Positions 16,565-51,680 of a DNA stretch of 64,000 nt are shown here, in pieces. Location of the stretch: assembly GCA_963733675.1 (NCBI GenBank), contig CAVTET010000015.1, positions 1 to 64,000 on the forward strand. The letters run 5' to 3'. Position 1 is the stretch's first letter, and each line of letters starts with the position of its first letter. A program made the position numbers and the translations under genes. This stretch comes from an uncultured Methanosarcinaceae archaeon (GTDB lineage Archaea > Halobacteriota > Methanosarcinia > Methanosarcinales > Methanosarcinaceae). The notes beneath the pieces are model-generated. The model had not been told where the DNA came from and ran no database searches. It saw only the letters and a program-made list of their open reading frames with translations.

Positions 16565-17419
16565 GGTTCAGTTGCAAAAACTTCAACAAAATATGTAAAT
16601 CTATAAGTAATTAATAAAAATCAAAATATTCCAGAAAAATGTACTAACATTATAAAGCTATACCAAATAATTGATTAATGTATTTGACTTCATTAAGAAC
16701 AGAGTAATTTAGATCGATTACTTGTCCTTTTTTGATCATATTTATAGCTTCAATTCCTTTTAAGGTTTTATTAGCAGATCGAAAAGACTGAAATCCTAAC
16801 ATTGGATTAACGATTCTCTTTATAGATCTGTGATCTTGTTCTATAATGTTATTCAAATACTTAATTTGTCTAATTTCAACATTTTTAGGTAGTATTTTAT
16901 CATTTTTCAGTTTATCTATAGCAGGTGGATAAGCTGGATTCTTATCAACGGTTATTAATCTTGGAATTTGATTATGATTAGAACTCAAAGCTTTCTTAAA
17001 GAATCTCTTCGCTGCCTTTCTATCTCGTTTTGAACTTAACATGAAATCAATTGTATCTCCATTTGAGTCAACTGCTCGGTAAAAATATTTCCATTTACCT
17101 TTTACTTTGATATAGGTTTCATCAACTCTCCACGAATCATTTGTTGGTCTTAAATGTCTTCTTATCTTCTTTTCTAGTTCAGGGGAATATTGATGTACCC
17201 ATCTCATGATTGTTGTATGGTCGACTTTTACTCCCCTTTCTGCCATCATTTCCTTTAAATTTCTATAACTTAATGCATATTTTAAGTACCATCTTACATT
17301 CAATAAGATAATTTCCCCTTCATAATGCTTCCATTTAAAGGAATTAGATAGCATGTTACTATCTTTGGTTTTCTTTTTATTCTATTGTATCATTAGAAAG
17401 GATTTTTTGCAACGGAACC
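16565..17419 (-). mobile_element. IS6-family insertion sequence, copy 1 (855 bp)
   Basis: IRs GGTTCAGTTGCAAAAA and GGTTCCGTTGCAAAAA; flanks TGATATTG and TTTATAAG do not match. Confidence 0.95.
16650..17354 (-). CDS. IS6-family DDE transposase
   Basis: 234 aa with WRVDETY, YRAVD, TVDK and NNIIEQDHR. Confidence 0.95.
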   Translation of the reverse strand: MLSNSFKWKHYEGEIILLNVRWYLKYALSYRNLKEMMAERGVKVDHTTIMRWVHQYSPELEKKIRRHLRPTNDSWRVDETYIKVKGKWKYFYRAVDSNGDTIDFMLSSKRDRKAAKRFFKKALSSNHNQIPRLITVDKNPAYPPAIDKLKNDKILPKNVEIRQIKYLNNIIEQDHRSIKRIVNPMLGFQSFRSANKTLKGIEAINMIKKGQVIDLNYSVLNEVKYINQLFGIAL

Positions 17420-17462
17420 TTTATAAGCATATGACAAAATTATGGAGTTTATTGAAATCCTC
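17420..17462. mobile_element. Half MITE abutting IS6 copy 1
   Basis: Right TIR ggagtttattgaaatcctc preceded by sequence resembling 11571-11592; no left half on the other side of the IS6. Confidence 0.55.
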
Positions 17463-33465: not shown

Positions 33466-34320
33466 GGTTCCGTTGCAAAAAATCCTTTCTAATGATACAA
33501 TAGAATAAAAAGAAAACCAAAGATAGTAACATGCTATCTAATTCCTTTAAATGGAAGCATTATGAAGGGGAAATTATCTTATTGAATGTAAGATGGTACT
33601 TAAAATATGCATTAAGTTATAGAAATTTAAAGGAAATGATGGCAGAAAGGGGAGTAAAAGTCGACCATACAACAATCATGAGATGGGTACATCAATATTC
33701 CCCTGAAATAGAAAAGAAGATAAGAAGACATTTAAGACCAACAAATGATTCGTGGAGAGTTGATGAAACCTATATCAAAGTAAAAGGTAAATGGAAATAT
33801 TTTTACCGAGCAGTTGACTCAAATGGAGAAACAATCGATTTCATGTTAAGTTCAAAACGAGATAGAAAGGCAGCGAAGAGATTCTTTAAGAAAGCTTTAA
33901 GTTCTAATCATAATCAAATTCCAAGATTAATAACCGTTGATAAGAATCCAGCTTATCCACCTGCTATAGATAAACTAAAAATTGATAAAATACTACCTAA
34001 AAACGTAGGCATTCGACAAATCAAGTATTTGAATAACATTATAGAACAAGATCACAGATCTATAAAGAGAATCGTTAATCCAATGTTAGGATTTCAGTCT
34101 TTTCGATCTGCTAATAAGACTTTAAAAGGAATTGAAGCTATAAATATGATCAAAAAAGGACAAGTAATCGATTTAAATTACTCTGTTCTTAATGAAGTCA
34201 AATACATTAATCACTTGTTTGGTATAGCTTTATAATGTTAGTACATTTTCCTTGAATATTTTGATTTTTATTAATCACTTATAGATTTACATATTTTGTT
34301 GAAGTTTTTGCAACGGAACC
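33466..34320 (+). mobile_element. IS6-family insertion sequence, copy 2 (855 bp) with 8-bp TSD
   Basis: Perfect 16-bp IRs GGTTCCGTTGCAAAAA; CTTTTTAT duplicated at 33458-33465 and 34321-34328. Confidence 0.97.
33531..34235 (+). CDS. IS6-family DDE transposase
   Basis: 234 aa; five amino-acid differences from copy 1. Confidence 0.95.
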   Translation: MLSNSFKWKHYEGEIILLNVRWYLKYALSYRNLKEMMAERGVKVDHTTIMRWVHQYSPEIEKKIRRHLRPTNDSWRVDETYIKVKGKWKYFYRAVDSNGETIDFMLSSKRDRKAAKRFFKKALSSNHNQIPRLITVDKNPAYPPAIDKLKIDKILPKNVGIRQIKYLNNIIEQDHRSIKRIVNPMLGFQSFRSANKTLKGIEAINMIKKGQVIDLNYSVLNEVKYINHLFGIAL

Positions 34321-34759
34321 CTTTTTATTATATGACTTACGAATTTGAAGTTCCTAAAGATTAAAACTATTTATAAATATAATTATTTAAAAAAGTTGTA
34401 AGAATGGATAAAGTCATGTCGATAAATCTACCCAGATGTACTTGCTTGATAATATCATTTTAATTATTGCTAAGTCTATCGTTTTTTAGCTACGGAAGCT
34501 TATAATATTCTTCTTCCACAATCAATGCTCATCAACATTATTATTTTACTCGTATCATTCAAAAGTAACTCTCTATACAGATCATTTATTCTTATCTATA
34601 ATGTCGATGAATTCAATCGATTTGCTGTGTTGCCTCGGATGCGAGAAAATGATATTTCTGTGCCATTTTCTGGATATAAATAAACTATTCAAATTTAAAT
34701 ATTTTCATTTGCTTATATTAGTCTTTTTCTTCATGGTTTCCTTTATCTTCAGAGTAGTT

Positions 34760-38968: not shown

Positions 38969-39853
38969 TTATTCCAATTCCCTAGCTAATAATAACTCAA
39001 TTCTAGTAGATGAAAGATCGCACTCCGTATCATGTTCATGAAAATGTTTGCCCTTGTGGGTGTGCAAATGCTCATGAACAAGCTTGCTGTGAATGTGCAT
39101 GTGCTCATGAATCAGATTTGAGTCCAGAAGAAGTTCCAAGTTATTGAGAACCTTTTCCACATCATCGTCCACCACAACTCTATGTTCTTCGCCCATGACT
39201 ATGGCTCTTTTGCTAATTTGCTCTACAAGTTCCAAGTCATGAGTAGCAGTAATTATCGTCTTGCCTGCATCCCCTAACTCTTGTAATAGCTCTGTAAGCC
39301 AGAGTTGGGTTCTAGGGTCCAATCCGGCTGTGGGCTCATCCAATAGAAGAACATCCGGGTTGCTAGCCAGAACAGTGGCTATGCACACCTTTTTTTTTTC
39401 ACCTCCACTTAGAGTGTGAGGGGATCTATCTTTAAGCTTAGTGATCCCTATCATTTCCATGACTTCCAAAACTCTGGTTTTTACTTCTCCCGGAGTAAGG
39501 TTAAGTTGCATCGGTCCAAATGCAATCTCCTCGAAGACCGTAGGTGAAAAGAGCTGTACATCTGAGTTCTGAAAGACAAGTCCTACTCTTGTCCGGAAAT
39601 AGGATCTAAATTCATTATCCTCAATAGTATTGAAAACCTCTTCAGATATCTTAGTATCAAAGGCATGGAATTCCCCAACTGTTGGATATATGAGCCCATC
39701 TAAAATGGCTAACAGAGTCGATTTGCCACTGCCATTTGAGCCAATTATAGATATCTGCTCGTTTTGGTTCACTTTGAAGCAGATATCTTTTAAGGCGTTT
39801 ATCCTTCCTGCATATGAATATGATACATTCCTTAAGTCAAAGATCATTTCCAT
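38969..39853 (-). CDS. cbiO: Co/Ni ECF transporter ATPase with His-rich tail
   Basis: GSNGSGKST, FQN, LSGGEKK, LLLDEP and THD; tail HEHMHIHSKLVHEHLHTH. Confidence 0.9.
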   Translation of the reverse strand: MEMIFDLRNVSYSYAGRINALKDICFKVNQNEQISIIGSNGSGKSTLLAILDGLIYPTVGEFHAFDTKISEEVFNTIEDNEFRSYFRTRVGLVFQNSDVQLFSPTVFEEIAFGPMQLNLTPGEVKTRVLEVMEMIGITKLKDRSPHTLSGGEKKKVCIATVLASNPDVLLLDEPTAGLDPRTQLWLTELLQELGDAGKTIITATHDLELVEQISKRAIVMGEEHRVVVDDDVEKVLNNLELLLDSNLIHEHMHIHSKLVHEHLHTHKGKHFHEHDTECDLSSTRIELLLARELE

Positions 39854-39860
39854 ATTCTTA

Positions 39861-40796
39861 TCACCTAATAATGTTCTGGGATATCAACACCATTATTATG
39901 CTTAGGGATATCGCCGTTGCACCTACGATATAATCTCGTTTGTGAATTCTGAACTCCTGCATTACCTTAACATCTCCATTGAAGCCCCTGGATATCATAG
40001 CCATATGAACTTTTTCGCTAATATCCATAGATCGTATAAGCGTGTAACCTATGCGTCCGCCAACCCATTTCTGCTCTTCTAACATGCCTCCAGCCTTTAT
40101 GGTCCTTGCTTTTTTGGCAAAATGCATATCTCGGACTAAATCCATCAAAAGGAAGATGTACCTGTTGGTCATCTCCAGCGTGAAAACATATATCTTCGGC
40201 ACGCCCACCGTTCGCAGAGACTTATAAAGAATCTGCTGTGGTGTGGTCAGAAAGAGCAAGACTATGGCAGAAACACACGTTGCAACACGCATAATAAATA
40301 TACTTGCTGCATATACACCTTGTCTGGTGATATATACGCTTTCTGGTAGTGTAAGTGATCCCACGTGGTTATTAGGGCCTAAATAAGCTAATGTAATTAA
40401 TGGATCACCTGGGAAGAAAATGTTGAAAATCATAGGTATGATGATGATGCCTGCAAAGATGGGGATAAAGAGCCAAACCCGTTTGATGAAAAATAAGATA
40501 TTGATTTTACTGAGATATGCAAGCAACAACGTGAATGTATAAATCAAAACCAGTAATTTCAAGTCTTTGATCAAACTTGTTGCGAATATTGCGGTCATAA
40601 TGGAAAGCAACTTGACCCTCGGATCCAAGCTCTGCAGAAAACCTTTTCTTCTGGAGAATCCCTCCGATATAAAAGCTTCCTCAATAAAACCTAAGATCCC
40701 ACCAATTGTGTTCTCTATGAATCCTTTCTTGCCATGATGAACAGCAAAGCACCCGCAAGGTTCTACTATCACTTCTTTCATCCAGTCCTGGATCAT
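39861..40796 (-). CDS. cbiQ: Co/Ni ECF transporter T component
   Basis: LDPRVKL, RYIFLL and AMISRGF motifs; multiple TM helices. Confidence 0.9.
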   Translation of the reverse strand: MIQDWMKEVIVEPCGCFAVHHGKKGFIENTIGGILGFIEEAFISEGFSRRKGFLQSLDPRVKLLSIMTAIFATSLIKDLKLLVLIYTFTLLLAYLSKINILFFIKRVWLFIPIFAGIIIIPMIFNIFFPGDPLITLAYLGPNNHVGSLTLPESVYITRQGVYAASIFIMRVATCVSAIVLLFLTTPQQILYKSLRTVGVPKIYVFTLEMTNRYIFLLMDLVRDMHFAKKARTIKAGGMLEEQKWVGGRIGYTLIRSMDISEKVHMAMISRGFNGDVKVMQEFRIHKRDYIVGATAISLSIIMVLISQNIIR

Positions 40797-41492: not shown

Positions 41493-41607
41493 TCAGATTG
41501 TGACTCAGGTCATCATTTCGTTCATTTCCACCTTTGTTTTCTCTCCGTAAAATACGGATGTATCTGTTCTCTGGATATAGGCAAAAATAATTGCTGTAAT
41601 CAGTGCC
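41493..41607 (-). pseudogene. cbiM: C-terminal stub of the CbiM/NikM S-component
   Basis: ALITAIIFAYIQRTD... sits directly upstream of the PDGLE gene; upstream of 41607 the sequence turns AT-rich and non-coding. Confidence 0.6.
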
Positions 41608-42496
41608 TAAGAATTCTAAATAAAAACATGTGTTAAATTTTGACGCATATTTTTAACAGTTAAATATTTGATGCGATTAATTTTTCAGTTAGATAATATA
41701 TAAGTCCTAGAATATTTTTACAAATCTAGATTATCAAGTATTACATATGCATCAGTTTATATTACTTTTTTGGATAAATTTTAATTTTATTCTTAAGTAA
41801 AGCTTCATTCACATCTTATATGGATCCATAGGTACTTTGTATCATGGAGTCGAAATCTAAATTGCAGTGATAATTGAGTCCATGATGAAGAACAAGAGGC
41901 TTTTACAGATTCTCGAATAAAGTAAATCTCATAAGGATAGATTAGTAACATCAGATTAGAAGGAAAGTATTTGATAATGCAAATTTGGTTCAATCGAAAA
42001 TAATGTACTTGTTAGATTTCTCAACTACTTGATATTGACATGTGCGTTTCCGACACAAATGTTACTGTATGTTAAAGCAAAATTACATCATGCAGAAGAG
42101 TAACAAAGTGATGAAATTTATAATATAGCTTCTTATCACACATGTTGGAAGTAGGTGTTATATGAAGATTGGTCCGACTTTTTTGAGATTCTTCTTTTCC
42201 TTTCCTACTTATATTCAATTAGTTTAAAAACAATAACCATTCAAAGACTTAAGTTCTTGAAGTACAAAATTAAGCTCAATATATTTTTCGATTAAATTCA
42301 CATTTTAGATAGTTAATGGTTTAATGTGTATTGATTTCGCAATTCCACTGCATAAGTCTTAAATATTACCAAATCTCTAACCACGACGTAAATTTCATTT
42401 GCTGTGGTTAGATTTTATAATACTCTTGTTTGTTTCTGAGAAGGCCGAGTTGTTTTCCCAAAAAGTTCAAAAACTAGAAGCTTTATGAGGAATTTA

Positions 42497-43284
42497 ACTG
42501 GGTTCGACGAAGTCATAATCACACGAGCAATTTTTGATGAGTATTCAAAAACCTTCCTGACCACACAGATATCGGCGTGGCACTTGTAGAAGGGGAGCCT
42601 GCAAATCTGGTGGCCGCAAAATATCTGGCAGAGGGGGGGGTAGAAGTCGCTATTTATGAAAAGAAGATACCTTTTGAGGGTTGGTATGTGGGGCTGGTGG
42701 CGTGATATTCCCACGCATAGTTAGAGTTGTGCAGGAAGAGGCTCGCTGCATGCTGGACGACTTCTGGATTTATATAGGGAATACCACCCAGGGTATTATG
42801 TGGCAAACTCAGTTGAATCAGTCGGAAAGCTAAATGCAGGTGCAACTTCAGCAGGGGCTGAAGTCTTTAACCTTGTGAATTTTGAGGACGTTATGATCCA
42901 GGAAAATGATCAGATTACTGGCATAGTGACCAATTGGGGACCTGTTGCAGAAAAGCACCTGCAAGTGGATCCTCTCATGATCAGCACAAAACTCGTAATA
43001 GACGTAACAGGGTACGATGCAGCTGTCAGCAACACGATTCTCCAAAAAATACCAAACTCAAAAATAGGGAAATTGGGGATGTTTGGGAGAAACCCATGTG
43101 ATCAGAGATTGGCTAGCACCTTACTGTTAATGCAACTCAGGAGATCTAGCCGGGTCTGATTGTTACGGGAATGGCCGCGAATGCAGCAACCTACGTTCCA
43201 AGAATGGGGTCTATCCCTGGAGTGCTGCTCCTTTCAGGTAAAAAATCTGTAAATATTGCTCTAAATAGGCTAACATGTCTTTAA
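42497..43284 (+). pseudogene. thi4: Thiazole biosynthesis enzyme Thi4, multiply disrupted
   Basis: DEVIITRAIFDEYSKTFL, PANLVAAKYLA, VANSVESVGKL, NWGPV, VDPLMI, GMAANAA and PRMG, with several frameshifts and stops. Confidence 0.88.
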
Positions 43285-43650
43285 AAACTCCAACTCTGAC
43301 CTCATATATGGTTTATAAATCAATTTTGTGCATTTATGATGCTGAAAAACATAAAATTTCTTTTACTCTAACTTTTCCAAAAATTGAGATGTCAATGTTC
43401 TCTAATTTTAGCTAAAACTGAGGAAATGCATCGATTTTACTTTAAAAATTGTGCATCCATGAGAGTTAGATCAATTGTATTGTCATAAAAAGGATTTATT
43501 CAGATACTTCAAAAAGAGCAGGGTATTTCTCTTTGAGTAATGCATGAATAGATTTATCTAGCTTTGTTTTATAGAGTGATTTCACTTCAGAAATTTGTTC
43601 AATTATACGATTTTTAGCTTGTATAAGGTCAGCAGCCTGTGTTCACAAAA

Positions 43651-44934
43651 TCAAATATTCTCAAGATCTCCACAAGCTAAGGCATCGAGTGCCATTTCAA
43701 TAACGCCAACGATAAAGTTCAAATCGTCTTGTGAAACGCAATATGGTGGCAACATATAGATCGTTTGCCCTATAGGTCGTAACAACACACCTTGCGCCAG
43801 GAAATAGCGATAAAGCTTCGGTGCAACGTCAGACAAATATCCTTGTCGAACATCGCATACTTCCAACGCCATAATTGTGCCGATATGCCGCAAATTTTCG
43901 ATATCCTTGCGCGCCGCCAACCGCGGCAGCAAAGCGGCTTGATGGTCATGCAACGTCTTTATGCGCTCTGCCACATTATCCTCTTCCCATAGATCAATCG
44001 AGGCGCAAGCTGCGGCGCAGGCCAACGGATTTCCTGTAAAAGAAGTTGAATGGAAGAAAGCTTTGGCGCGGTTCGTGCTGTAAAATGCCTGATAAATATC
44101 TTCAGTTGCTAACGTTGCAGCCATAGGCAAACAACCGTTGGTAAGGCCTTTAGATAAACATACAATGTCCGGTTCTATATGCGCCTGTTCGCAGGCAAAG
44201 CGTGTCCCTGTGCGTCCCCATCCAGTCATGACTTCATCGGCAATAAAAATCACACCGTAGCTCCGACATAAAGCGTACAGCGAGCGCAACGTCGCAGCGC
44301 TGTAAATCCGCATTCCGGCAGCACCTAGAACAAGTGGTTCGACAATCAATGCGGCGATATCGTTCGCTTGCTTTATGAGCAGCTTCTCGAAGGCCTCTAC
44401 AGTCAAATGTTCGCGACCAGTTTCAGGAAAAGGCAGGCGATGTACATTGAACAGAAACTTTTCATAGGGTGCGCTGAAAATGCCGCGCGAGCCCACTGAC
44501 ATCGCACCGAAAGTATCTCCGTGATACGCATGCTCAAGCGTCACAATGCCCCCTCGCGTTTTGTCTTTGTGCGCCCAGTATCCCAACGCCATTTTCAAGG
44601 CAACTTCAACTGCCGTCGAACCGCTGTCGGAATAGAAAACACGCGTCAAATTGGGCGGTGTGAGCCCCACTAATTTCTCCGCCAATCTTTCAGCGGGTTC
44701 ATGCGTGAATCCAGCAAAGATAATTTGGTCTAGTTTTGCGGCCTGTTCCTGCACAGCTGCGACTATCTTTGGACTATTATGCCCGTGAATATTTACCCAC
44801 CACGAAGAAATAGCGTCGACAATCCGCCGTCCATCCTTGGCATAAAGATAAGCACCTTCGGCGCGGTCGATAAAAACAGAATCCGGTAATAATGCATGTT
44901 GAGTAAAGGGATGCCAAATTGGAGAATGAGTCAT
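43651..44934 (-). CDS. bioA: Adenosylmethionine-8-amino-7-oxononanoate aminotransferase (DAPA synthase)
   Basis: IWHPFTQ, DAISSWW, DSGSTAVEVALK, YHGDT, IADEVMTGWGRTG and SKGLT; ATGA overlap with the bioD stop places the start at 44934. Confidence 0.95.
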   Translation of the reverse strand: MTHSPIWHPFTQHALLPDSVFIDRAEGAYLYAKDGRRIVDAISSWWVNIHGHNSPKIVAAVQEQAAKLDQIIFAGFTHEPAERLAEKLVGLTPPNLTRVFYSDSGSTAVEVALKMALGYWAHKDKTRGGIVTLEHAYHGDTFGAMSVGSRGIFSAPYEKFLFNVHRLPFPETGREHLTVEAFEKLLIKQANDIAALIVEPLVLGAAGMRIYSAATLRSLYALCRSYGVIFIADEVMTGWGRTGTRFACEQAHIEPDIVCLSKGLTNGCLPMAATLATEDIYQAFYSTNRAKAFFHSTSFTGNPLACAAACASIDLWEEDNVAERIKTLHDHQAALLPRLAARKDIENLRHIGTIMALEVCDVRQGYLSDVAPKLYRYFLAQGVLLRPIGQTIYMLPPYCVSQDDLNFIVGVIEMALDALACGDLENI

Positions 44935-45551
44935 GCAAAATCCTCTTTCCGAAATCTCTGCGCAAAAACGGCCAACAATGTGGCACGGTCGATGACATCC
45001 AGATGCGGGACGTGACCGAGAACGAGCGCGCCGGAAAAATCGGCAATCGTACACATAGTATCGGGATTATCCTCACCGATAAAAATCAGCCCGTGCAAAG
45101 TCATGTCTCGTTGGCGCAAGGCCTCAACGGATAATAACGTATGATTGATCGTTCCAAGCCCCGTATGCGCACATAAAACAACCGGCGCAGCCCACGCCTT
45201 GAAAACATCTATCTGTAATTTCCGGCGGGTTACCGGAACCATAAGCCCGCCAACGCCTTCGACAATCAAAGTCCCGTTCACCTTGGGCAAAGAAAACGAG
45301 CCTATTTCAATGCCATCCAGTTCGGCTGCACGATGCGGTGAGAGCGGACGCGATAGAATATAGCGTTCCGGCAGAAATCGGTCATTGGACAATCCGGTCA
45401 ACGCCTGTAAACGCTGTGTATCCGTGCCGTCTTCGATGCCGGACTGGAGAGGCTTCCAGTATTGTGCATCCAGTGTGACAGTCAGCATAGCAGCAACGGT
45501 AGTTTTGCCAATACCAGTATCTGTGCCGCTGATGATAAAGGACTTCGTCAT
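44931..45551 (-). CDS. bioD: Dethiobiotin synthase
   Basis: SGTDTGIGKT, WKPLQSG, SPHRAA, VEGVGG and LGTINHTLLS; ATGA overlap with bioF. Confidence 0.95.
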   Translation of the reverse strand: MTKSFIISGTDTGIGKTTVAAMLTVTLDAQYWKPLQSGIEDGTDTQRLQALTGLSNDRFLPERYILSRPLSPHRAAELDGIEIGSFSLPKVNGTLIVEGVGGLMVPVTRRKLQIDVFKAWAAPVVLCAHTGLGTINHTLLSVEALRQRDMTLHGLIFIGEDNPDTMCTIADFSGALVLGHVPHLDVIDRATLLAVFAQRFRKEDFA

Positions 45552-46675
45552 AGGCCAACACCGGACGGCAAAAGACGTTCAAAAGCCTGTGCAAAATTTT
45601 CTATATCCTGCACCGTCAGCCCCACATTCAATGACAAGCGCAAACGCGCTGTGCCTTCGGGAACTGTAGGGGGGCGTATTGCGCGAATGTCGAATCCTTG
45701 CGCCTGTAGGTTCTTTGCCAGAGCGAGCGCTGCGGCATCTTCACCAATGATAATCGGTACAATCTGGCTTTTAACGGCAAGAGTGGGAATCCGTCGAGCC
45801 ACAAGCGCTTTTAGCGCAGCAAGTCGTTCGCGCCTTTCCGGTTCATCACGCACTAATTCCAACGCGCGTTTAACCAAAACCGCCTGCAAAGGCATTGGCG
45901 CAGTACTATAGATAAAAGGTCGTGCGGAGTTGATGAGATAGTCGATGATATTCTCATTCGCGCAAACAAGTGCGCCTGCGACCCCTAGCGCCTTACCGCA
46001 AGTATGCAGCGAAATCAGCCGGTCGTGCGCTAATCCTTCGGTTTCGCCGCGTCCTGTCGCGCCGGAAACACCCGTGCCATGCGCTTCGTCAACGACCAGA
46101 ATCGCATCGTATTTTTCTGCAAGCATGAGAAGGTCGCGTACCGGCGCGAGGTCTCCGTCCATGCTGTAAATGGATTCAACCAAAATCCATTTATTACATT
46201 CTGCGCCGACTGGCTTCTCAAGCGCATCTTCAAAAGCTTCCAGATTGTTATGAGGAATCTTGACCTTCCTGCATTGAGCCGCATGCAGCCCATCGCGCAT
46301 ACTAGCATGACACAAGGCATCGAAAATCGCGACATCGTTACGCTTGACCATCGTTGTAATCAGGGCGTAATTCGCCTGAAACCCGTTGGCAAAAAACAAA
46401 GTTCGAGGGCATCCATAATAGGCGGAGGCAAAATATTCCAGTTCTTCATGTGCCTGTCTGTGCCCGCGTAAAAGCCGCGAGGCTGTCGCGCCGATTTCTA
46501 TACCACCCTGCAACGCTTCAATTGCCGCCTGTCGTAAAGCGGGATGTGTAGAAAGGCCGAGATAATCATTCGACGAAAAATCAATTCCTGCAGGGAGGTG
46601 GAGCGAACGATAACGCCCCATGGCCTTCAGACGATCGAGATCAGGCGCGAAGTTTTTCACAATGAAGCCCCTCAT
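45548..46675 (-). CDS. bioF: 8-amino-7-oxononanoate synthase
   Basis: DFSSNDYLGL, ESIYSMDGD, VDEAHGTG, TCGKALG and AIRPPTVP..TARLRLS; the start may be GTG 46660. Confidence 0.95.
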   Translation of the reverse strand: MRGFIVKNFAPDLDRLKAMGRYRSLHLPAGIDFSSNDYLGLSTHPALRQAAIEALQGGIEIGATASRLLRGHRQAHEELEYFASAYYGCPRTLFFANGFQANYALITTMVKRNDVAIFDALCHASMRDGLHAAQCRKVKIPHNNLEAFEDALEKPVGAECNKWILVESIYSMDGDLAPVRDLLMLAEKYDAILVVDEAHGTGVSGATGRGETEGLAHDRLISLHTCGKALGVAGALVCANENIIDYLINSARPFIYSTAPMPLQAVLVKRALELVRDEPERRERLAALKALVARRIPTLAVKSQIVPIIIGEDAAALALAKNLQAQGFDIRAIRPPTVPEGTARLRLSLNVGLTVQDIENFAQAFERLLPSGVGL

Positions 46676-46880
46676 AACATTTTTTATTCGGCGCGCGAGC
46701 CTTCAATCCCAGTGCCGTTATTAATCGATGATCCTCACTGATACCGAGGTTAAGCATGGTTAGTAGTTTGTCGCCGGTGAAAATCGATGTGGATTCTGCC
46801 AGAAACGCCAGAGCCTGCGCCTTGCGGCCGATTTTAATGCTGCCCGCTGAAGAATGCATCATTTCCTTCGGCACCAGATT
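46641..46880 (-). pseudogene. bioB: C-terminal remnant of biotin synthase
   Basis: SAG...QALAFLAESTSIFTGDKLLT.LN...ED..LITALGL matches the BioB C-terminus (canonical RLSAGR..QALCF.AGANSIF.GDKLLT.PN); the radical-SAM domain is absent. Confidence 0.8.
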
Positions 46881-46931
46881 TTTTGTTTGGTTAAATACTT
46901 GTTTTTCCATTTGTCTATACTCCAAACTGTT

Positions 46932-47400
46932 TTATAATAACAGATTCTCCGCCTTATCTCCTTTAGTTTCGACAACCATTCCCTTTGAAACCCAGCCGAA
47001 TGCATTGTTTGGATCAAGCATCAAGCCTTTATCTAAATAACCTTGTACGTCGTCATTTTTACTTTCTATTATACCTAACACTATGCCTTTCCAGACGTTG
47101 TACGTTGAACTATTAGGGTTTAATAAAAGTGCATGGTCAATTGCTGCGTCAGCTTCATTCGTTTTAAATTCTTGAGATAAAGCCATCCCTATTTGTGTTC
47201 AGAACCACGATCAGATCTTGAATATATTTCCATTTTGGAACCAATGCACTAGTAGCGCAGTTGCAGACATAGGATAAAAAGACAGAAAATTAAATAAACT
47301 CCAGCAGCTTACATTTCGCCTATTCAGCTTTATTGCAGATATCATATGTGATTCAACATCATTAAAATTTGCCTTTATTTGAGCCTTTAAAATCGTTGTA
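46932..47400 (-). pseudogene. TPR-repeat protein fragments
   Basis: AIDHALLLNPNSS..WKG and DKGLMLDPNNAFGWVSKG repeats, broken by stops. Confidence 0.55.
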
Positions 47401-47409
47401 TATATGAAT

Positions 47410-47960
47410 CTATTATATATTATCGAATCTCTCACATATTCGATATCATATGTAAGAGATATATACCTTGAATTTCCGAGCCTTTTACTTTCTTTTCATG
47501 GATCAGTTGCTTGTCATTAAAATCAGTCAGCCTTCAGGATATATTTCTCTCACTGGTTAGAGACTCACCTAAGATTTTATAGATCATTTTGTAGACCTCA
47601 TAGATTATTCCGGTAGTTGGTAGAGACTTCAATTTTTCAGATTTTATCATTTGGTGACAGAGGTATATTGCAATTATTGGAATCTTATCACGCTTTGAGA
47701 ACTTAACAATCATTTCCAGAGTCGCAGTATTTGTTATTTCCATATCTACAAGATCAATATGAGTTTTTGTAATCCTTAGCTAGAGTATAAATACGCGATA
47801 CCGTTCTCAAGCTCTTGCTATCAATGTGCTTACAGACATGTTGGACAGATTTAGGAAATAGCCGGAGGAGTAACCTATAACACAAGCTTAGGCTATAATA
47901 AATCACAGTTCATTTTTCCTTCAAGTGCAGATTCTGCATAAGGGCAGAAAAAAGAGTCTC
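47410..47960 (-). pseudogene. Cdc6/Orc1-like winged-helix relic
   Basis: TTGIIYEVYKMIYKILGE....ERNIS*RLTD.....I.....KRLGNSRYISL resembles the Cdc6 C-terminal domain. Confidence 0.45.
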
Positions 47961-48249
47961 TAATGTATTTAAAATAAGTTTTTAATTGCACACAACTGCC
48001 TAAAAAAATTTTGTAGAACATGACTACATTATTATGATTCTTCTTGAAAATCTATTTTCATCAGAAATCACTTTTGAGGCGTTTTTGAAAGTTCATTATT
48101 AGGACCCAATTTTAGGGTATTTTAAGAAGCATATAATCAAATTGATGACCATATCAGAGCGTATTAAATGACCAATCTCATTGTATACAAACTGATCATT
48201 AACTAGCATTGGTATTAAGTCAAAAAAATACAAAAAGTGTTCTTTTTAT

Positions 48250-48640
48250 GTTAGATGATAGTTCATCAATAGTGAATTGACGTTTAGGTCCCATCTGCTG
48301 AGATCTACACTGGCTGCGTTGAACAATCATAGTGAAAGGATCCATTGTAAACAGATCGTTTCCCATCAGAAAAAAGTACAAGCTGATCAAGCGTTTCCGC
48401 TCCCAGGTACCTATCTGACTATGAACTGTTGCATCCCCTATTTTCTTATGATTGCCTTTGTTTCTCCCAACTCTTCCCCAGGTATATCCAGGCTAGTTAC
48501 AAGAGCTTTAACACCTTCATTTTCAGCTTTTGCTATTGTACTATGATATCATCTGAAGCCGGAGTGATAGCTCCTGGAATTTTAAACAGAAGTACTTTAT
48601 TTTCAATTCCCGCCAAACTAAAGATACAGATGCTGTAGAA
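48250..48640 (-). pseudogene. NfeD-family membrane protease N-terminal fragment
   Basis: IPGAITPASDDII..IAKAENEGVKALVTSLDIPG..L.ETK...VPGSGNA*SA with stops and frameshifts. Confidence 0.7.
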
Positions 48641-49397
48641 TGAGTATTGAGCAAGCTGAATCTCTTTCAAATGGTTGGACAAGTTAAAGGGTGGTGAAAC
48701 TTTAATCAACCATGACTTATATTAGGAAAAATGAAGATTCTTTTGAGTTTTCGCTAACTAAACTTGCTAACTAGGGCACAAAAATCTAGAAATAAGATGG
48801 AAAATTCAGTCGTTTTCCAGTTTTTAGGCCATGCTCTGACCTACTGATAAAACACTCTAATGTAAAGAATATTAAATGTTTGAGGCACCCAATTTTAGAG
48901 TCTTATTTCTCTAAAGTGTTGAACGAATATTATTAGGAAATTAGATTCTTCGGTTTTAATGCTTTTATACATGGATTGTTTCTCGAATTGATTTTATATT
49001 TAATACGTATATAATCGAAAGAAACCATTTTATTCCTATAGTTACAAGAACAGATGAGAAAAACATACTCCATAAAAACTAATTCTTTCAACCTAATATT
49101 TTTATCCATGGTCAATATTATAAATCAAAATCACTAGCCTTTGGACTAAGTTATTTGTTTTTTCTGTATTGGTCTCTGAGACAAACAATAAAACAAATAT
49201 TATAAAATTCAATGCTATGAGTGTGCTTTTCGAATTTTGCCCTATAATTTAAGGGTTTTACCGACTTTTGCAATGTTATATTGTGTGCAACAAAGTATAA
49301 ATTTAATCTATACTTCTGAAGTTGGATGTTCATTGGAGCATCTAAGAAAGGATCAAGGGCTATAGGCCGAATCACAAAAAAGGATAGCTACATAAAA

Positions 49398-50180
49398 TTA
49401 ATCGGTTAAGCCACAATTGAGATACATAAATAAGGGGCATTGAGAAGGGGTTGAAGATGCGATAGATTGATATAACTGTATCATTTCGCTCAGTTCGCCA
49501 ATCCCAATTTGTTCTCCATTACTCAACAAAAGCACTTTATCGCAAAAACGCTGTATTGTACTCAAATAATGGCTGACATAAACGACTGTTTTGTCCATTT
49601 CCCTGTATCCTTCGTAAATTTCAAAGAATTTTCTCTGAAAATCAAGGCCGCCTATGGCAAGGACTTCGTCCAGTCGAAGAATTTTCGGTTCTATTGAACT
49701 GCTGTTGAAAATGCCAGCCTTACTATCATTCCACTGGAAAAATTTTTGGTATTTGTATCCTTGAAAAGGGTTAATCCCCCAAACTCAAGAATATTGTCTA
49801 TTCGGCTATCTACCTCGCTGTCAGAAAATCCCACAATAGCTCCATAAATTTTTATATTCTCTTTTGCGGTCAAATAGGGTTGAAAACCTATCCCTAGCTC
49901 CAAAAATGAAGTTATTTTTCCGTTTAACGTTATTTTGTCTTTTGTTGGACGGATAGTATTTGCAATGACTTTTAGAAGAGTACTTTTTCCACTTCCATTA
50001 TGACCTATAACTCCGATTCACTCTCCTTTCTTGACTGTGAAGTTTGTGTCTTGTAATGCGGTAGATGATGTGTATCCTATTTTACTATCCAGCAGTCCAT
50101 ATAAAGCCTCAAATAACGTATTTTTTTTCGTGAGGGATCTTGTAATTTATCCATATGTTTTTTGCTTCAATTATATCCAT
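49398..50180 (-). pseudogene. Wzt/TagH-like polysaccharide export ABC ATPase, disrupted
   Basis: GHNGSGKSTLL, LELGIGFQP.LTAKEN, FSSGMIVRLAFS, LDEVLAIG and VSH spread over several frames. Confidence 0.85.
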
Positions 50181-50185
50181 AATAA

Positions 50186-50952
50186 TTAAACCTCTTCTGC
50201 AAATCCAGGTTCAAGATTAATAAAAATCAAATATCCAATAACTAACATCATAAGAGACGAAGCTAAACAGTAGATAAGGTATGAGGAAGAAACGGTTGTA
50301 TTGTACAACAACGACTCTCTGGAGATCAAAATTATTCTTGCCATTGGACTCAAAAGTAATAAATTTTTAAGTTCACCTTGATAAGTCGATAAATTAATTC
50401 AAATTCCACTCGCAAAAAAGCCAGCCTGAAGAATAACTGCCCAGCTATACTGGATATTTCTATAGTATGTATTGAGTGCTCCTAAAGCAAGGGAAGTACC
50501 AAATACGAGTACAAATATGTTCACGAAAATGAAGGGAAAATAAATAATGATCGATGTTGGTGTCAATCCCGAAGACGCCATGAAAGCACCAAACACCCCA
50601 AGTTCAAGCACAGCCATATTAAAGCAGTTATAGACTAACTGAAAATCAATATTTCTCTTGGGATATATACCTGTCTGACCAGTCCTGATTTGCTGATTAT
50701 GCTTGACGGGCCCATTGAAGTGCTTTTTGTGAAAAAATCCCACAAGACAATGCCAAGAAGAAGGAACAAATGGTAATTTTTCTGAGTACTTGGATACACA
50801 TCTACAAATATAATATATAGTACCATTAACATTAGTAATGGCTCCAGCAAGGACCAGAAAAATCCAAGGACTGAGTTTTTATATCATACATTGAACTCGC
50901 TTACTGCTAGTCTTTTTACAAGACAACGATATTTACACAAATTTTTGATCAT
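50186..50952 (-). pseudogene. Wzm-like polysaccharide export ABC permease, disrupted
   Basis: YKNSVLGFFWSLLEPLLM, VYIPRE, YRNIQY.W...LQAGFF and EPGFAEEV, with frameshifts. Confidence 0.85.
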
Positions 50953-50959
50953 ACACTGA

Positions 50960-51420
50960 TTACATCTTTCGTTTTCCTAATAAATTCTGATGGATCAAAA
51001 CGTTTTGCTCTTCGCATACCTGAATTCTTGTATTTCTCAGGATCTTTCGAGACAACTTATTGGTCTGACGATACTTTCTATGTTTGCTTCAACTAGCAAC
51101 CCTGTTTCTTCATCAATCATACTTTCAAGGTAGCCACCTTCTCTAACTGCTACCATGGGTTTTCCTGTATCCATAGGTTCAATAGGTGTCATTCCAAAAT
51201 TCTCATTCTTTTAGTGTTAATGTGACCTATACAGGTGGCATAAACTCAAGTAATTTTCCTAGCAAACATTGCCCATGAGCGTTACGTTTTCCAGGAGCTC
51301 CGTAATTAACTTAGATGCATAGCGTGATGCATGATCTCCTGCTTCATAGCCACCGACAATAAGCAATTTTTGATCTGGCTTTTTCTGAAAACTTCGATCT
51401 GTAGCATGTAACTGTTGTGC
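50960..51420 (-). pseudogene. Glycosyltransferase family 4 C-terminal fragment
   Basis: ENFGMTPIEPM..GKPMVAVREGGYLESMIDEETGLLV (E-x7-E motif), frameshifted. Confidence 0.7.
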
Positions 51421-51680
51421 ATTTCATGAGGTTTTCTTTGTCATTGATGAGTTACCAAGTTCTTTGTTTCATCTTCCTTCTAATTTTAATATTTTTTTAC
51501 TTAGTTATACTGGATACATTATTATCTATTGTTCTATTTAAGTATCTTTAATTAATTATCTTATTATATTATATTATAGGCATGTTTTATATAATTTAAC
51601 ATAACAAAAATAATTCAATATAATTTTCCATTGTTATAATTATATTAACTTATATCATTAATGTATCTCGTGGGATATTA

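Follow-up and report, generated by a model that had tools for sequence, protein, structure and literature searches.

How a bacterial-looking bioF-bioD-bioA cluster came to lie whole in the decaying genome of a methanogen, and whether it still serves biotin synthesis there, is the question raised by contig CAVTET010000015.1 of an uncultured Methanosarcinaceae archaeon (GenBank assembly GCA_963733675.1). The DNA analysed, here called the window, is the first 64 kb (64,000 nucleotides) of this 74.9-kb contig, and the genome to which it belongs, G000, comprises 3.92 Mb in 15 contigs with a GC content of 0.357. The host is archaeal: PurL shares 79-84% identity with named Methanosarcina proteins, McrA is intact, and the window contains intact genes for phosphoenolpyruvate (PEP) synthase, PurL, PurH and LysA; judged by sequence, it is a divergent Methanosarcina. 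The inter-domain transfer of the cluster is real and fairly old, and the cluster is probably functional. The best explanation overall, and one that is considered rather probable, is a biotin pathway assembled from two bacterial donors and then reciprocally pruned.

The bioF-bioD-bioA cluster

The three genes lie on the minus strand and are intact: bioA (adenosylmethionine-8-amino-7-oxononanoate transaminase, 43651-44934, 427 residues from an ATG at 44934), bioD (dethiobiotin synthase, 44931-45551, 206 residues) and bioF (8-amino-7-oxononanoate synthase, AONS, 45548-46675, 375 residues). bioD overlaps its neighbour at both ends by an ATGA, and the full-length frames are as described in the original prediction, which was made from the window alone and whose two overlaps (45548-45551 and 44931-44934) are exact. 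BioA matches the NCBIfam profiles NF004624 (571.6 bits; cut-off 494) and TIGR00508 (541.1 bits; cut-off 405) over residues 3-418 of 427, a full-length match above the curated cut-offs, and BioD also scores above that of its NCBIfam family (TIGR00347, 111.7 bits; cut-off 83.3). BioF is identified by several features together: its best family among the alpha-oxoamine synthases is bioF, 115 bits ahead of Kbl, the match is full-length, the top eight solved structures are all AONS, the T-x-G-K motif with the pyridoxal-phosphate (PLP) lysine aligns with them, and the gene stands in an operon context. The catalytic motifs were predicted to have been kept and can indeed be found; besides the BioF lysine, the translations contain the P-loop GTDTGIGKT of BioD, presumably in its usual role, and the SKGLT lysine motif of BioA, which we take to include catalytic residues.

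Upstream of bioF, at 46701-46892 on the minus strand, lies bioB', the C-terminal ~63 residues of a biotin synthase without the radical S-adenosylmethionine part. It matches TIGR00433 only at positions 245-307 of 307 (248-307 in a second scan), with 29-30 bits against a cut-off of 225, and falls far short of the BioB family; it is best read as a remnant that would not encode a working biotin synthase. Among the genomes that share the window's junctions (context A, below), bioB' diverges by 0.19-0.26 per site, compared with 0.04-0.15 in the flanks. The cluster had been described as intact, and this holds for bioF, bioD and bioA, but bioB is only a stump, so the cluster alone does not make up a pathway.

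The GC content is 0.49-0.52 at 44-47 kb and 0.34-0.40 in adjoining DNA, and the counts of 34 and 18 G or C per 60 nucleotides on which the prediction of a GC-rich island was based are exact. GC content at third codon positions (GC3) is 0.47-0.54 in the cluster; host genes have 0.35-0.46 and the bacterial relatives 0.71-0.81, and the intermediate value of the cluster fits a long residence in the host.

Alphaproteobacterial origin and distribution

BioA is 53-59% identical to proteins from named Hyphomicrobiales and Sphingomonadales among the matches listed, 73-74% identical to those of Asticcacaulis sp., the nearest named relative, and of an alphaproteobacterial metagenome-assembled genome, and 75-83% identical to metagenome proteins (P0006, P0008 and P0007 at 82-83%). 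On the BioA tree, the Methanosarcina sequences form a clade (support 100/96) with P0006 and P0008 as sisters (100/97), several nodes deep in a bacterial group, and the other archaeal BioA present in a 401-genome sample of the phylum are set apart by branch lengths of 2.4 and 1.3 changes per site. The BioF and BioD trees give L108, L111 and L109, from high-GC metagenome contigs, as nearest relatives, with L108 and L111 as sisters, and identity to L108-L111 is 71-74%, 68-71% and 71-74% for the three proteins. Since the trees share their nearest relatives and the identities are alike (68-74%), the three genes came together. All three proteins nest in Alphaproteobacteria, as had been expected. A sample of that class yielded one genome of 401 at E <= 1e-175 (G578, 63% identity), which does not sharpen the donor and on which no claim rests.

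Six of the 177 family genomes have BioA of this type, and all six belong to a single genus; across the phylum, BioA scores above the cut-off in four of 401 sampled genomes. BioD is above its cut-off in five of 59 genomes of the genus, with a broken copy in a further one (G019). The six genomes constitute one subclade, within which PurL is 91-96% identical and outside of which it is at most 84% identical to the remaining members of the genus; synonymous divergence (dS) of purL is 0.14-0.29 within the subclade and approximately 1.3-1.7 towards other Methanosarcina. For bioF, bioD and bioA, dS is 0.20-0.41 and ranks the pairs of genomes in the same order as purL; the transfer therefore predates the radiation of the subclade, and the cluster has been inherited since.

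Vertical inheritance would have some precedent, given that some archaea have bioA, bioD and bioW (the Methanocaldococcus controls were positive) and that three genomes of family f31 have BioA. The cluster is, however, absent from 171 of the 177 family genomes, the f31 BioA lie across very long branches and the nearest sequences are bacterial. Tree and distribution thus refute this explanation, whose probability is negligible, and the predicted transfer from bacteria to archaea stands.

Junctions and genomic contexts

The same DNA, together with its flanks, is present in five other genomes of the genus. Three of these (G055, G019 and G067) have both junctions of the window according to blastn and alignments, and are referred to with G000 as context A; the other two (G064 and G066) have a different pair of junctions, context B. 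Downstream, the foreign DNA stops 13-15 nt past the bioA stop in all six genomes, and in the window this 3' tail is a T-run on the minus strand (43640-43650), the last bases common to all six in an alignment (blastn limit 43640). Upstream, an AT-rich spacer (46893-46931) is common only to the four context-A genomes in the alignment. In context B, a shorter bioB' is joined in frame to the first ~55 residues of a KaiC-like gene, its Walker A region (L107 11374-11673 in G064; L104 11326-11715 in G066), and the join falls where both sequences are alike. The syntenic position in G000 shows no trace of the context-B locus.

The abrupt change in GC content at either end of the cluster, in an assembly of 15 contigs with an estimated contamination of 2.66%, is what would be seen if misassembly or binning had brought bacterial and archaeal DNA together. 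The same junctions recur, however, in G055, G019 and G067, another pair is present in G064 and G066, and the contig carries Methanosarcina housekeeping genes. Contigs from two soil-metagenome runs of a separate study (X3 and X4) cross both junctions with no differences and at even depth. As independent assemblies and the contigs of another study show the same junctions, the cluster is not a chimera; an artefact is refuted as far as sequence data can refute it, and its remaining probability is minute. The junctions proposed at about 43650 and 46880 are both real, in four assemblies as well as in the contigs of the other study, and the coverage is even.

A second locus and the proposed history

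An intact bioB lies elsewhere in G000 (C4:291115-292017). It matches TIGR00433 at 388.9 bits over profile positions 2-306 without stops, qualifies as a BioB and is the sole intact copy of the genome; another copy, at C4:702066-702968, is a pseudogene with three stops. The nearest named relatives of the C4 bioB are Bacillota, at 64-73% identity, and BioB above the cut-off was found in none of five complete Methanosarcina genomes. Among the five sister genomes, four have this type of bioB intact; in G055 it is split at a contig start, with an in-frame TGA. Its ratio of nonsynonymous to synonymous substitution rates (dN/dS) is 0.14-0.19. In five of the six genomes, an N-terminal stump of bioD directly follows this bioB and overlaps its stop. 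The intact bioB of G064 (L260) is 93.5% identical to the pseudogene copy of G000, whereas the intact and pseudogene copies of G000 are 87.6% identical to each other; on these identities, ancestral bioB duplicates were sorted differently among lineages, with paralogues retained reciprocally.

In five other Methanosarcinaceae genomes (G051, G068, G083, G087 and G088; L271-L275), BioB is above the cut-off but only 44-47% identical, and neither BioD nor BioA is above its cut-off. These are orphan biotin synthases of separate origin.

Taking together the observed origins, junctions, gene integrity, purifying selection and reciprocal stumps, the history would have run as follows. The stem lineage of one Methanosarcina subclade would have received a bioB-bioF-bioD-bioA segment, the donor being an alphaproteobacterium with ties to the BioA clade that includes Asticcacaulis, and the same lineage would separately have gained a Bacillota-type bioB with an adjacent bioD. 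The redundant copies would then have decayed reciprocally, alphaproteobacterial bioB to the 63-residue stump and the bioD beside the Bacillota-type bioB to its N-terminal stump, leaving one working copy for each of the last four steps. BioF would convert a pimeloyl thioester and alanine to 7-keto-8-aminopelargonic acid (KAPA), BioA would convert this to 7,8-diaminopelargonic acid (DAPA), BioD would yield dethiobiotin and BioB, from the other locus, biotin. BirA and a biotin-carrying carboxylase subunit of the oadA/PycB type (795 bits) are both intact, and the biotin would serve these. The four enzymes would act together, transcription would proceed from archaeal signals in the AT-rich flank, and the pimeloyl unit may come from 2-oxosuberate of the coenzyme B pathway, not from bioC and bioH, bioW or bioZ. 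The strongest argument that the four surviving genes work together is that each acquired set has lost exactly what the other set supplies.

Purifying selection and gene loss

Pairwise dN/dS of the concatenated bioF, bioD and bioA is 0.12-0.20 in all 15 pairs of genomes, far below 1, as had been anticipated for genes under selection. BioF, at 0.09-0.20, is as constrained as BioD and BioA. The cluster matches housekeeping purL, whose dN/dS is 0.15-0.24 in the same genomes and 0.06-0.08 between or towards ordinary Methanosarcina; relative to the latter, selection on purL is itself relaxed in the subclade.

All three genes are intact only in G000, G064 and G066. bioF carries a deletion of 73 bp in G055, bioD is interrupted at codon 40 by a stop in G067, and in G019 none of the three genes is free of lesions. 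A peat RNA-library contig (X18) has the same three bioD indels as G019 (window positions 45199, 45398 and 45434), and because they reappear in this independent contig the indels are real and not assembly errors; the contig itself reflects either a transcribed pseudogene or DNA carried into the library. The claim that the cluster is kept under selection therefore applies to most of its history, over which dN/dS is purifying, but not to the present of every lineage, as some sister lineages, amounting to half of the known relatives, are currently losing the pathway.

Weighing the proposed pathway

Several observations weigh against a working two-donor pathway. BioF spans positions 24-364 of 365 of TIGR00858 with 356.6 bits, below the curated cut-off of 426.45. 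The two closest bacterial BioF among the matches listed, both encoded in bioF-D-A clusters, also remain below it (346 and 366 bits), and the shortfall is therefore a trait of the subfamily and not a sign of decay. At least one of the three genes is broken in three of the six genomes. A BioY transporter is intact in G000, G064 and G019, and in G000 uptake could suffice. A complete pathway, with bioW, bioC plus bioH, or bioZ as a recognised source of pimeloyl-CoA or pimeloyl-ACP, was not recovered: bioW was found in none of five genomes searched, bioC reached at most 61 bits against a cut-off of 185 and bioH 62.7 against 207, and no search for bioZ was made. The link from 2-oxosuberate to biotin synthesis goes back to older biochemical work and belongs to general background. 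Contigs of the two RNA-library runs reach no more than 90-95% likeness, extend over the pseudogenes alongside as well and have depths that cannot rank genes, and parts without RNA cover carry no weight either way. Lastly, the gene tree, ((G000,G055),G064),(G019,G067),G066, does not separate contexts A and B, although a clade of the two context-B genomes is not rejected (approximately unbiased test, p-AU 0.076). Duplication with differential loss, movement mediated by insertion sequences (IS) and exchange between lineages would each explain the two contexts.

The states of BioY, bioB and bioF-bioD-bioA show no clean either/or pattern over the six genomes, and not-found results in G055 and G067 refer to genomes that are 73% and 79% complete. 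In G066, a genome with intact bioF-D-A, BioY is a pseudogene with six stops (G066:C11:35346-35768, L254).

Some of these points would also be expected of a relic in transit, that is, a cluster that was useful in an ancestor, is unneeded in G000 and is intact there only since no disabling mutation has yet occurred. The lesions already present in half of the genomes, the intact BioY uptake of G000 and the decayed bioB' agree with such a relic, and pairwise dN/dS averages a long shared history and is blind to a recent relaxation. On the other hand, approximately 3.0 kb of uninterrupted frame has persisted where open reading frames (ORFs) cover only 0.495 of the genome and 0.07-0.17 of the DNA alongside, dN/dS is still 0.16 in the closest pair (G000 and G055), and the partner bioB, itself under constraint as given above, is intact in G000 and four of five sisters. 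A relic is thus regarded as unlikely, while remaining the most serious competitor of the two-donor pathway.

The missing pimeloyl-thioester genes (bioW, bioC and bioH searches) also bear on a partial use of the cluster, in which dethiobiotin would be produced, or KAPA or DAPA salvaged from the surroundings, without full de novo synthesis. The orphan BioB of the five other Methanosarcinaceae indicate that partial biotin gene sets persist in the family. BioF is, however, under the same constraint as BioD and BioA, and to our knowledge it acts only in the first committed step, which starts from a pimeloyl thioester. Methanogens moreover make C7 and C8 2-oxo-diacids for coenzyme B, among which 2-oxosuberate is a coenzyme B intermediate, according to a passage of PMC3087415. 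Partial use is accordingly judged improbable, and the two-donor pathway is retained as the preferred explanation.

Flanking genes and decay of the host genome

The prediction of an eroding archaeal genome is borne out across G000. ORFs of at least 100 residues cover 0.495 of 43 sampled 20-kb windows, at a GC content of 0.353, compared with 0.72-0.73 at a GC content of approximately 0.41 in twelve windows of three complete Methanosarcina genomes. Cover in the sister genomes G019, G064 and G066 is 0.48-0.63, with GC again about 0.35, and next to the cluster it is 0.17 (41500-43650) and 0.07 (46676-51680). Fourteen of the 67 recognisable orthologues of 138 sampled Methanosarcina ORFs are broken, a descriptive count made without a control genome. 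An IS6-like element of 855 bp with a 234-residue ORF is present in 111 copies of at least 800 bp in G000, two of them in the window (16565-17420 and 33466-34332), and in G066 one IS copy lies 540 bp from bioA (L104 6918-7785). With its IS bloom, pseudogenes and AT shift, the lineage looks like an archaeon in early reductive evolution. The literature searched yielded no description of such reductive evolution in Methanosarcina, nor of this lineage or transfer.

Near the cluster, a pseudogene fragment of Thi4 (thiazole synthase) lies at 42800-43159 on the plus strand (PF01946 positions 94-187 of 235, E 5.3e-18), and this flank is also present in G019, G067 and G055. On the other side, three broken genes occupy 49458-51393 on the minus strand, with orthologues of 358, 255 (membrane protein) and 242 (ATPase-like) residues that are intact in G049 and G068. 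The region has 78-81% DNA identity to four Methanosarcina genomes, and tblastn splits every gene across two or three frames, with one to three stops in five of seven pieces. Eight of ten short flank ORFs had no Pfam match, including a TPR-looking piece (46932-47186) and the fragments at 49398-49903, the latter being placed by comparison with G049. The statement that every neighbour is a pseudogene fits the Thi4 fragment and the three broken genes but is overstated, as CbiQ (39861-40796) and CbiO (38969-39853, with family matches) are intact as long open frames approximately 3 kb from the cluster.

Two further observations concern other genes. A dihydrolipoyl dehydrogenase-like ORF at 11670-12887 matches its profile at positions 73-474 of 474, with approximately 70 N-terminal residues missing or in another frame. 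BioA also matches an aminotransferase paralogue, approximately 33% identical, in which some 20 Methanosarcina genomes have one in-frame TGA within the match (as at G013:C1:4023500-4024582) and G000 has none.

Habitat

Among the runs aligned to the window, those with this sequence at 99% identity or above are labelled as soil metagenomes, and a peat metatranscriptome has relatives that are 90-95% alike. Ten metagenomes of peat and permafrost with small shares (X9-X15, X17, X19 and X20) were not used as evidence of habitat.

It had been proposed that the cluster is a vitamin-supplying trait of a host-associated methanogen, of insects or other animals. IS expansion, pseudogene load and AT shift resemble the early stages of host restriction in bacteria, a resemblance known from general background. 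The soil labels speak against this proposal, and so do the lack of any animal label among the 20 runs listed, the 3.9-Mb genome with intact methanogenesis and purine genes and the ongoing loss of the cluster in the sisters. Vitamin supply to an animal host is therefore very improbable; nothing indicates such a host, and a protist host is possible.

A bolder form of the two-donor explanation, considered improbable, would be that a symbiont-like, decaying Methanosarcina of soil and peat built a chimeric pathway from two bacterial phyla, fed by 2-oxosuberate, and that the acquisitions mark a shift to a biotin-poor niche bound to a partner, for instance within anaerobic soil protists. With 2-oxosuberate as feed, no bacterial pimelate module would be needed, and where sister lineages are losing genes, the partner or the supply would have changed again later.

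Comparison with known systems

Bacterial genes in Methanosarcina and mobile biotin operons are already known. The closest parallel is the alphaproteobacterial bioBFDA(Z) operon of the Mesorhizobium, Rhizobium, Brucella and Hyphomicrobium type, which has the same gene order and tight coupling and in which bioZ may follow bioA. The likeness to this operon that had been claimed extends to the B-F-D-A order and to alphaproteobacterial ancestry, but not to bioZ, which is not downstream of bioA (no genome-wide search for bioZ was made). Nor does it extend to the closest bacterial relatives among the matches listed (L108-L111), which have bioF-D-A without adjacent bioB or bioZ; among more distant alphaproteobacterial loci, however, bioB is found upstream. 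Collinear bioF-D-A occurs at 131 of 160 bacterial loci; upstream DNA is long enough at 117 loci, and in at least 66 of these the bioB C-terminus lies directly upstream. Unlike the operon, the archaeal locus retains only a 63-residue stump of bioB, its foreign DNA ends 13-15 nt past the bioA stop, and in its archaeal recipient GC3 has drifted halfway to the host value.

The biotin operons of Wolbachia, Cardinium and Rickettsia are complete six-gene sets transferred from bacterium to bacterium inside animal hosts. They resemble the present case, by description and not by sequence comparison, in that a biotin block arrives laterally in a gene-losing genome. Here, in contrast, the transfer is between domains, a second donor would have made up for the genes missing from the set, and the DNA was sampled from soil. 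Clostridial ackA-pta is a transfer from bacteria to Methanosarcina and offers a second parallel, as Methanosarcina takes bacterial metabolic genes that are then under selection, and one of the donors here is also Bacillota-like. The present case differs in involving a six-genome subclade, not the whole genus, and a cofactor pathway from two donors with reciprocal loss.

Methanocaldococcus jannaschii has bioW, bioA, bioD and bioB, all matched by the controls, and indicates that methanogens can run BioF-A-D-B chemistry. The present genome, by comparison, is without bioW, and its bio genes are unrelated to the other archaeal BioA sampled on the tree. The locus also prompts a biochemical question, namely whether the coenzyme B branch could feed a BioF of bacterial descent. 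Set beside these systems, the locus would represent a dated and replicated case of an archaeal vitamin pathway assembled from two bacterial donors. The discarded duplicates are still visible as stumps, so that the order of events can be read directly, and the six genomes, of which three have the cluster intact, two have a single lesion and one has it fully broken, constitute a natural series on the biotin need of methanogens.

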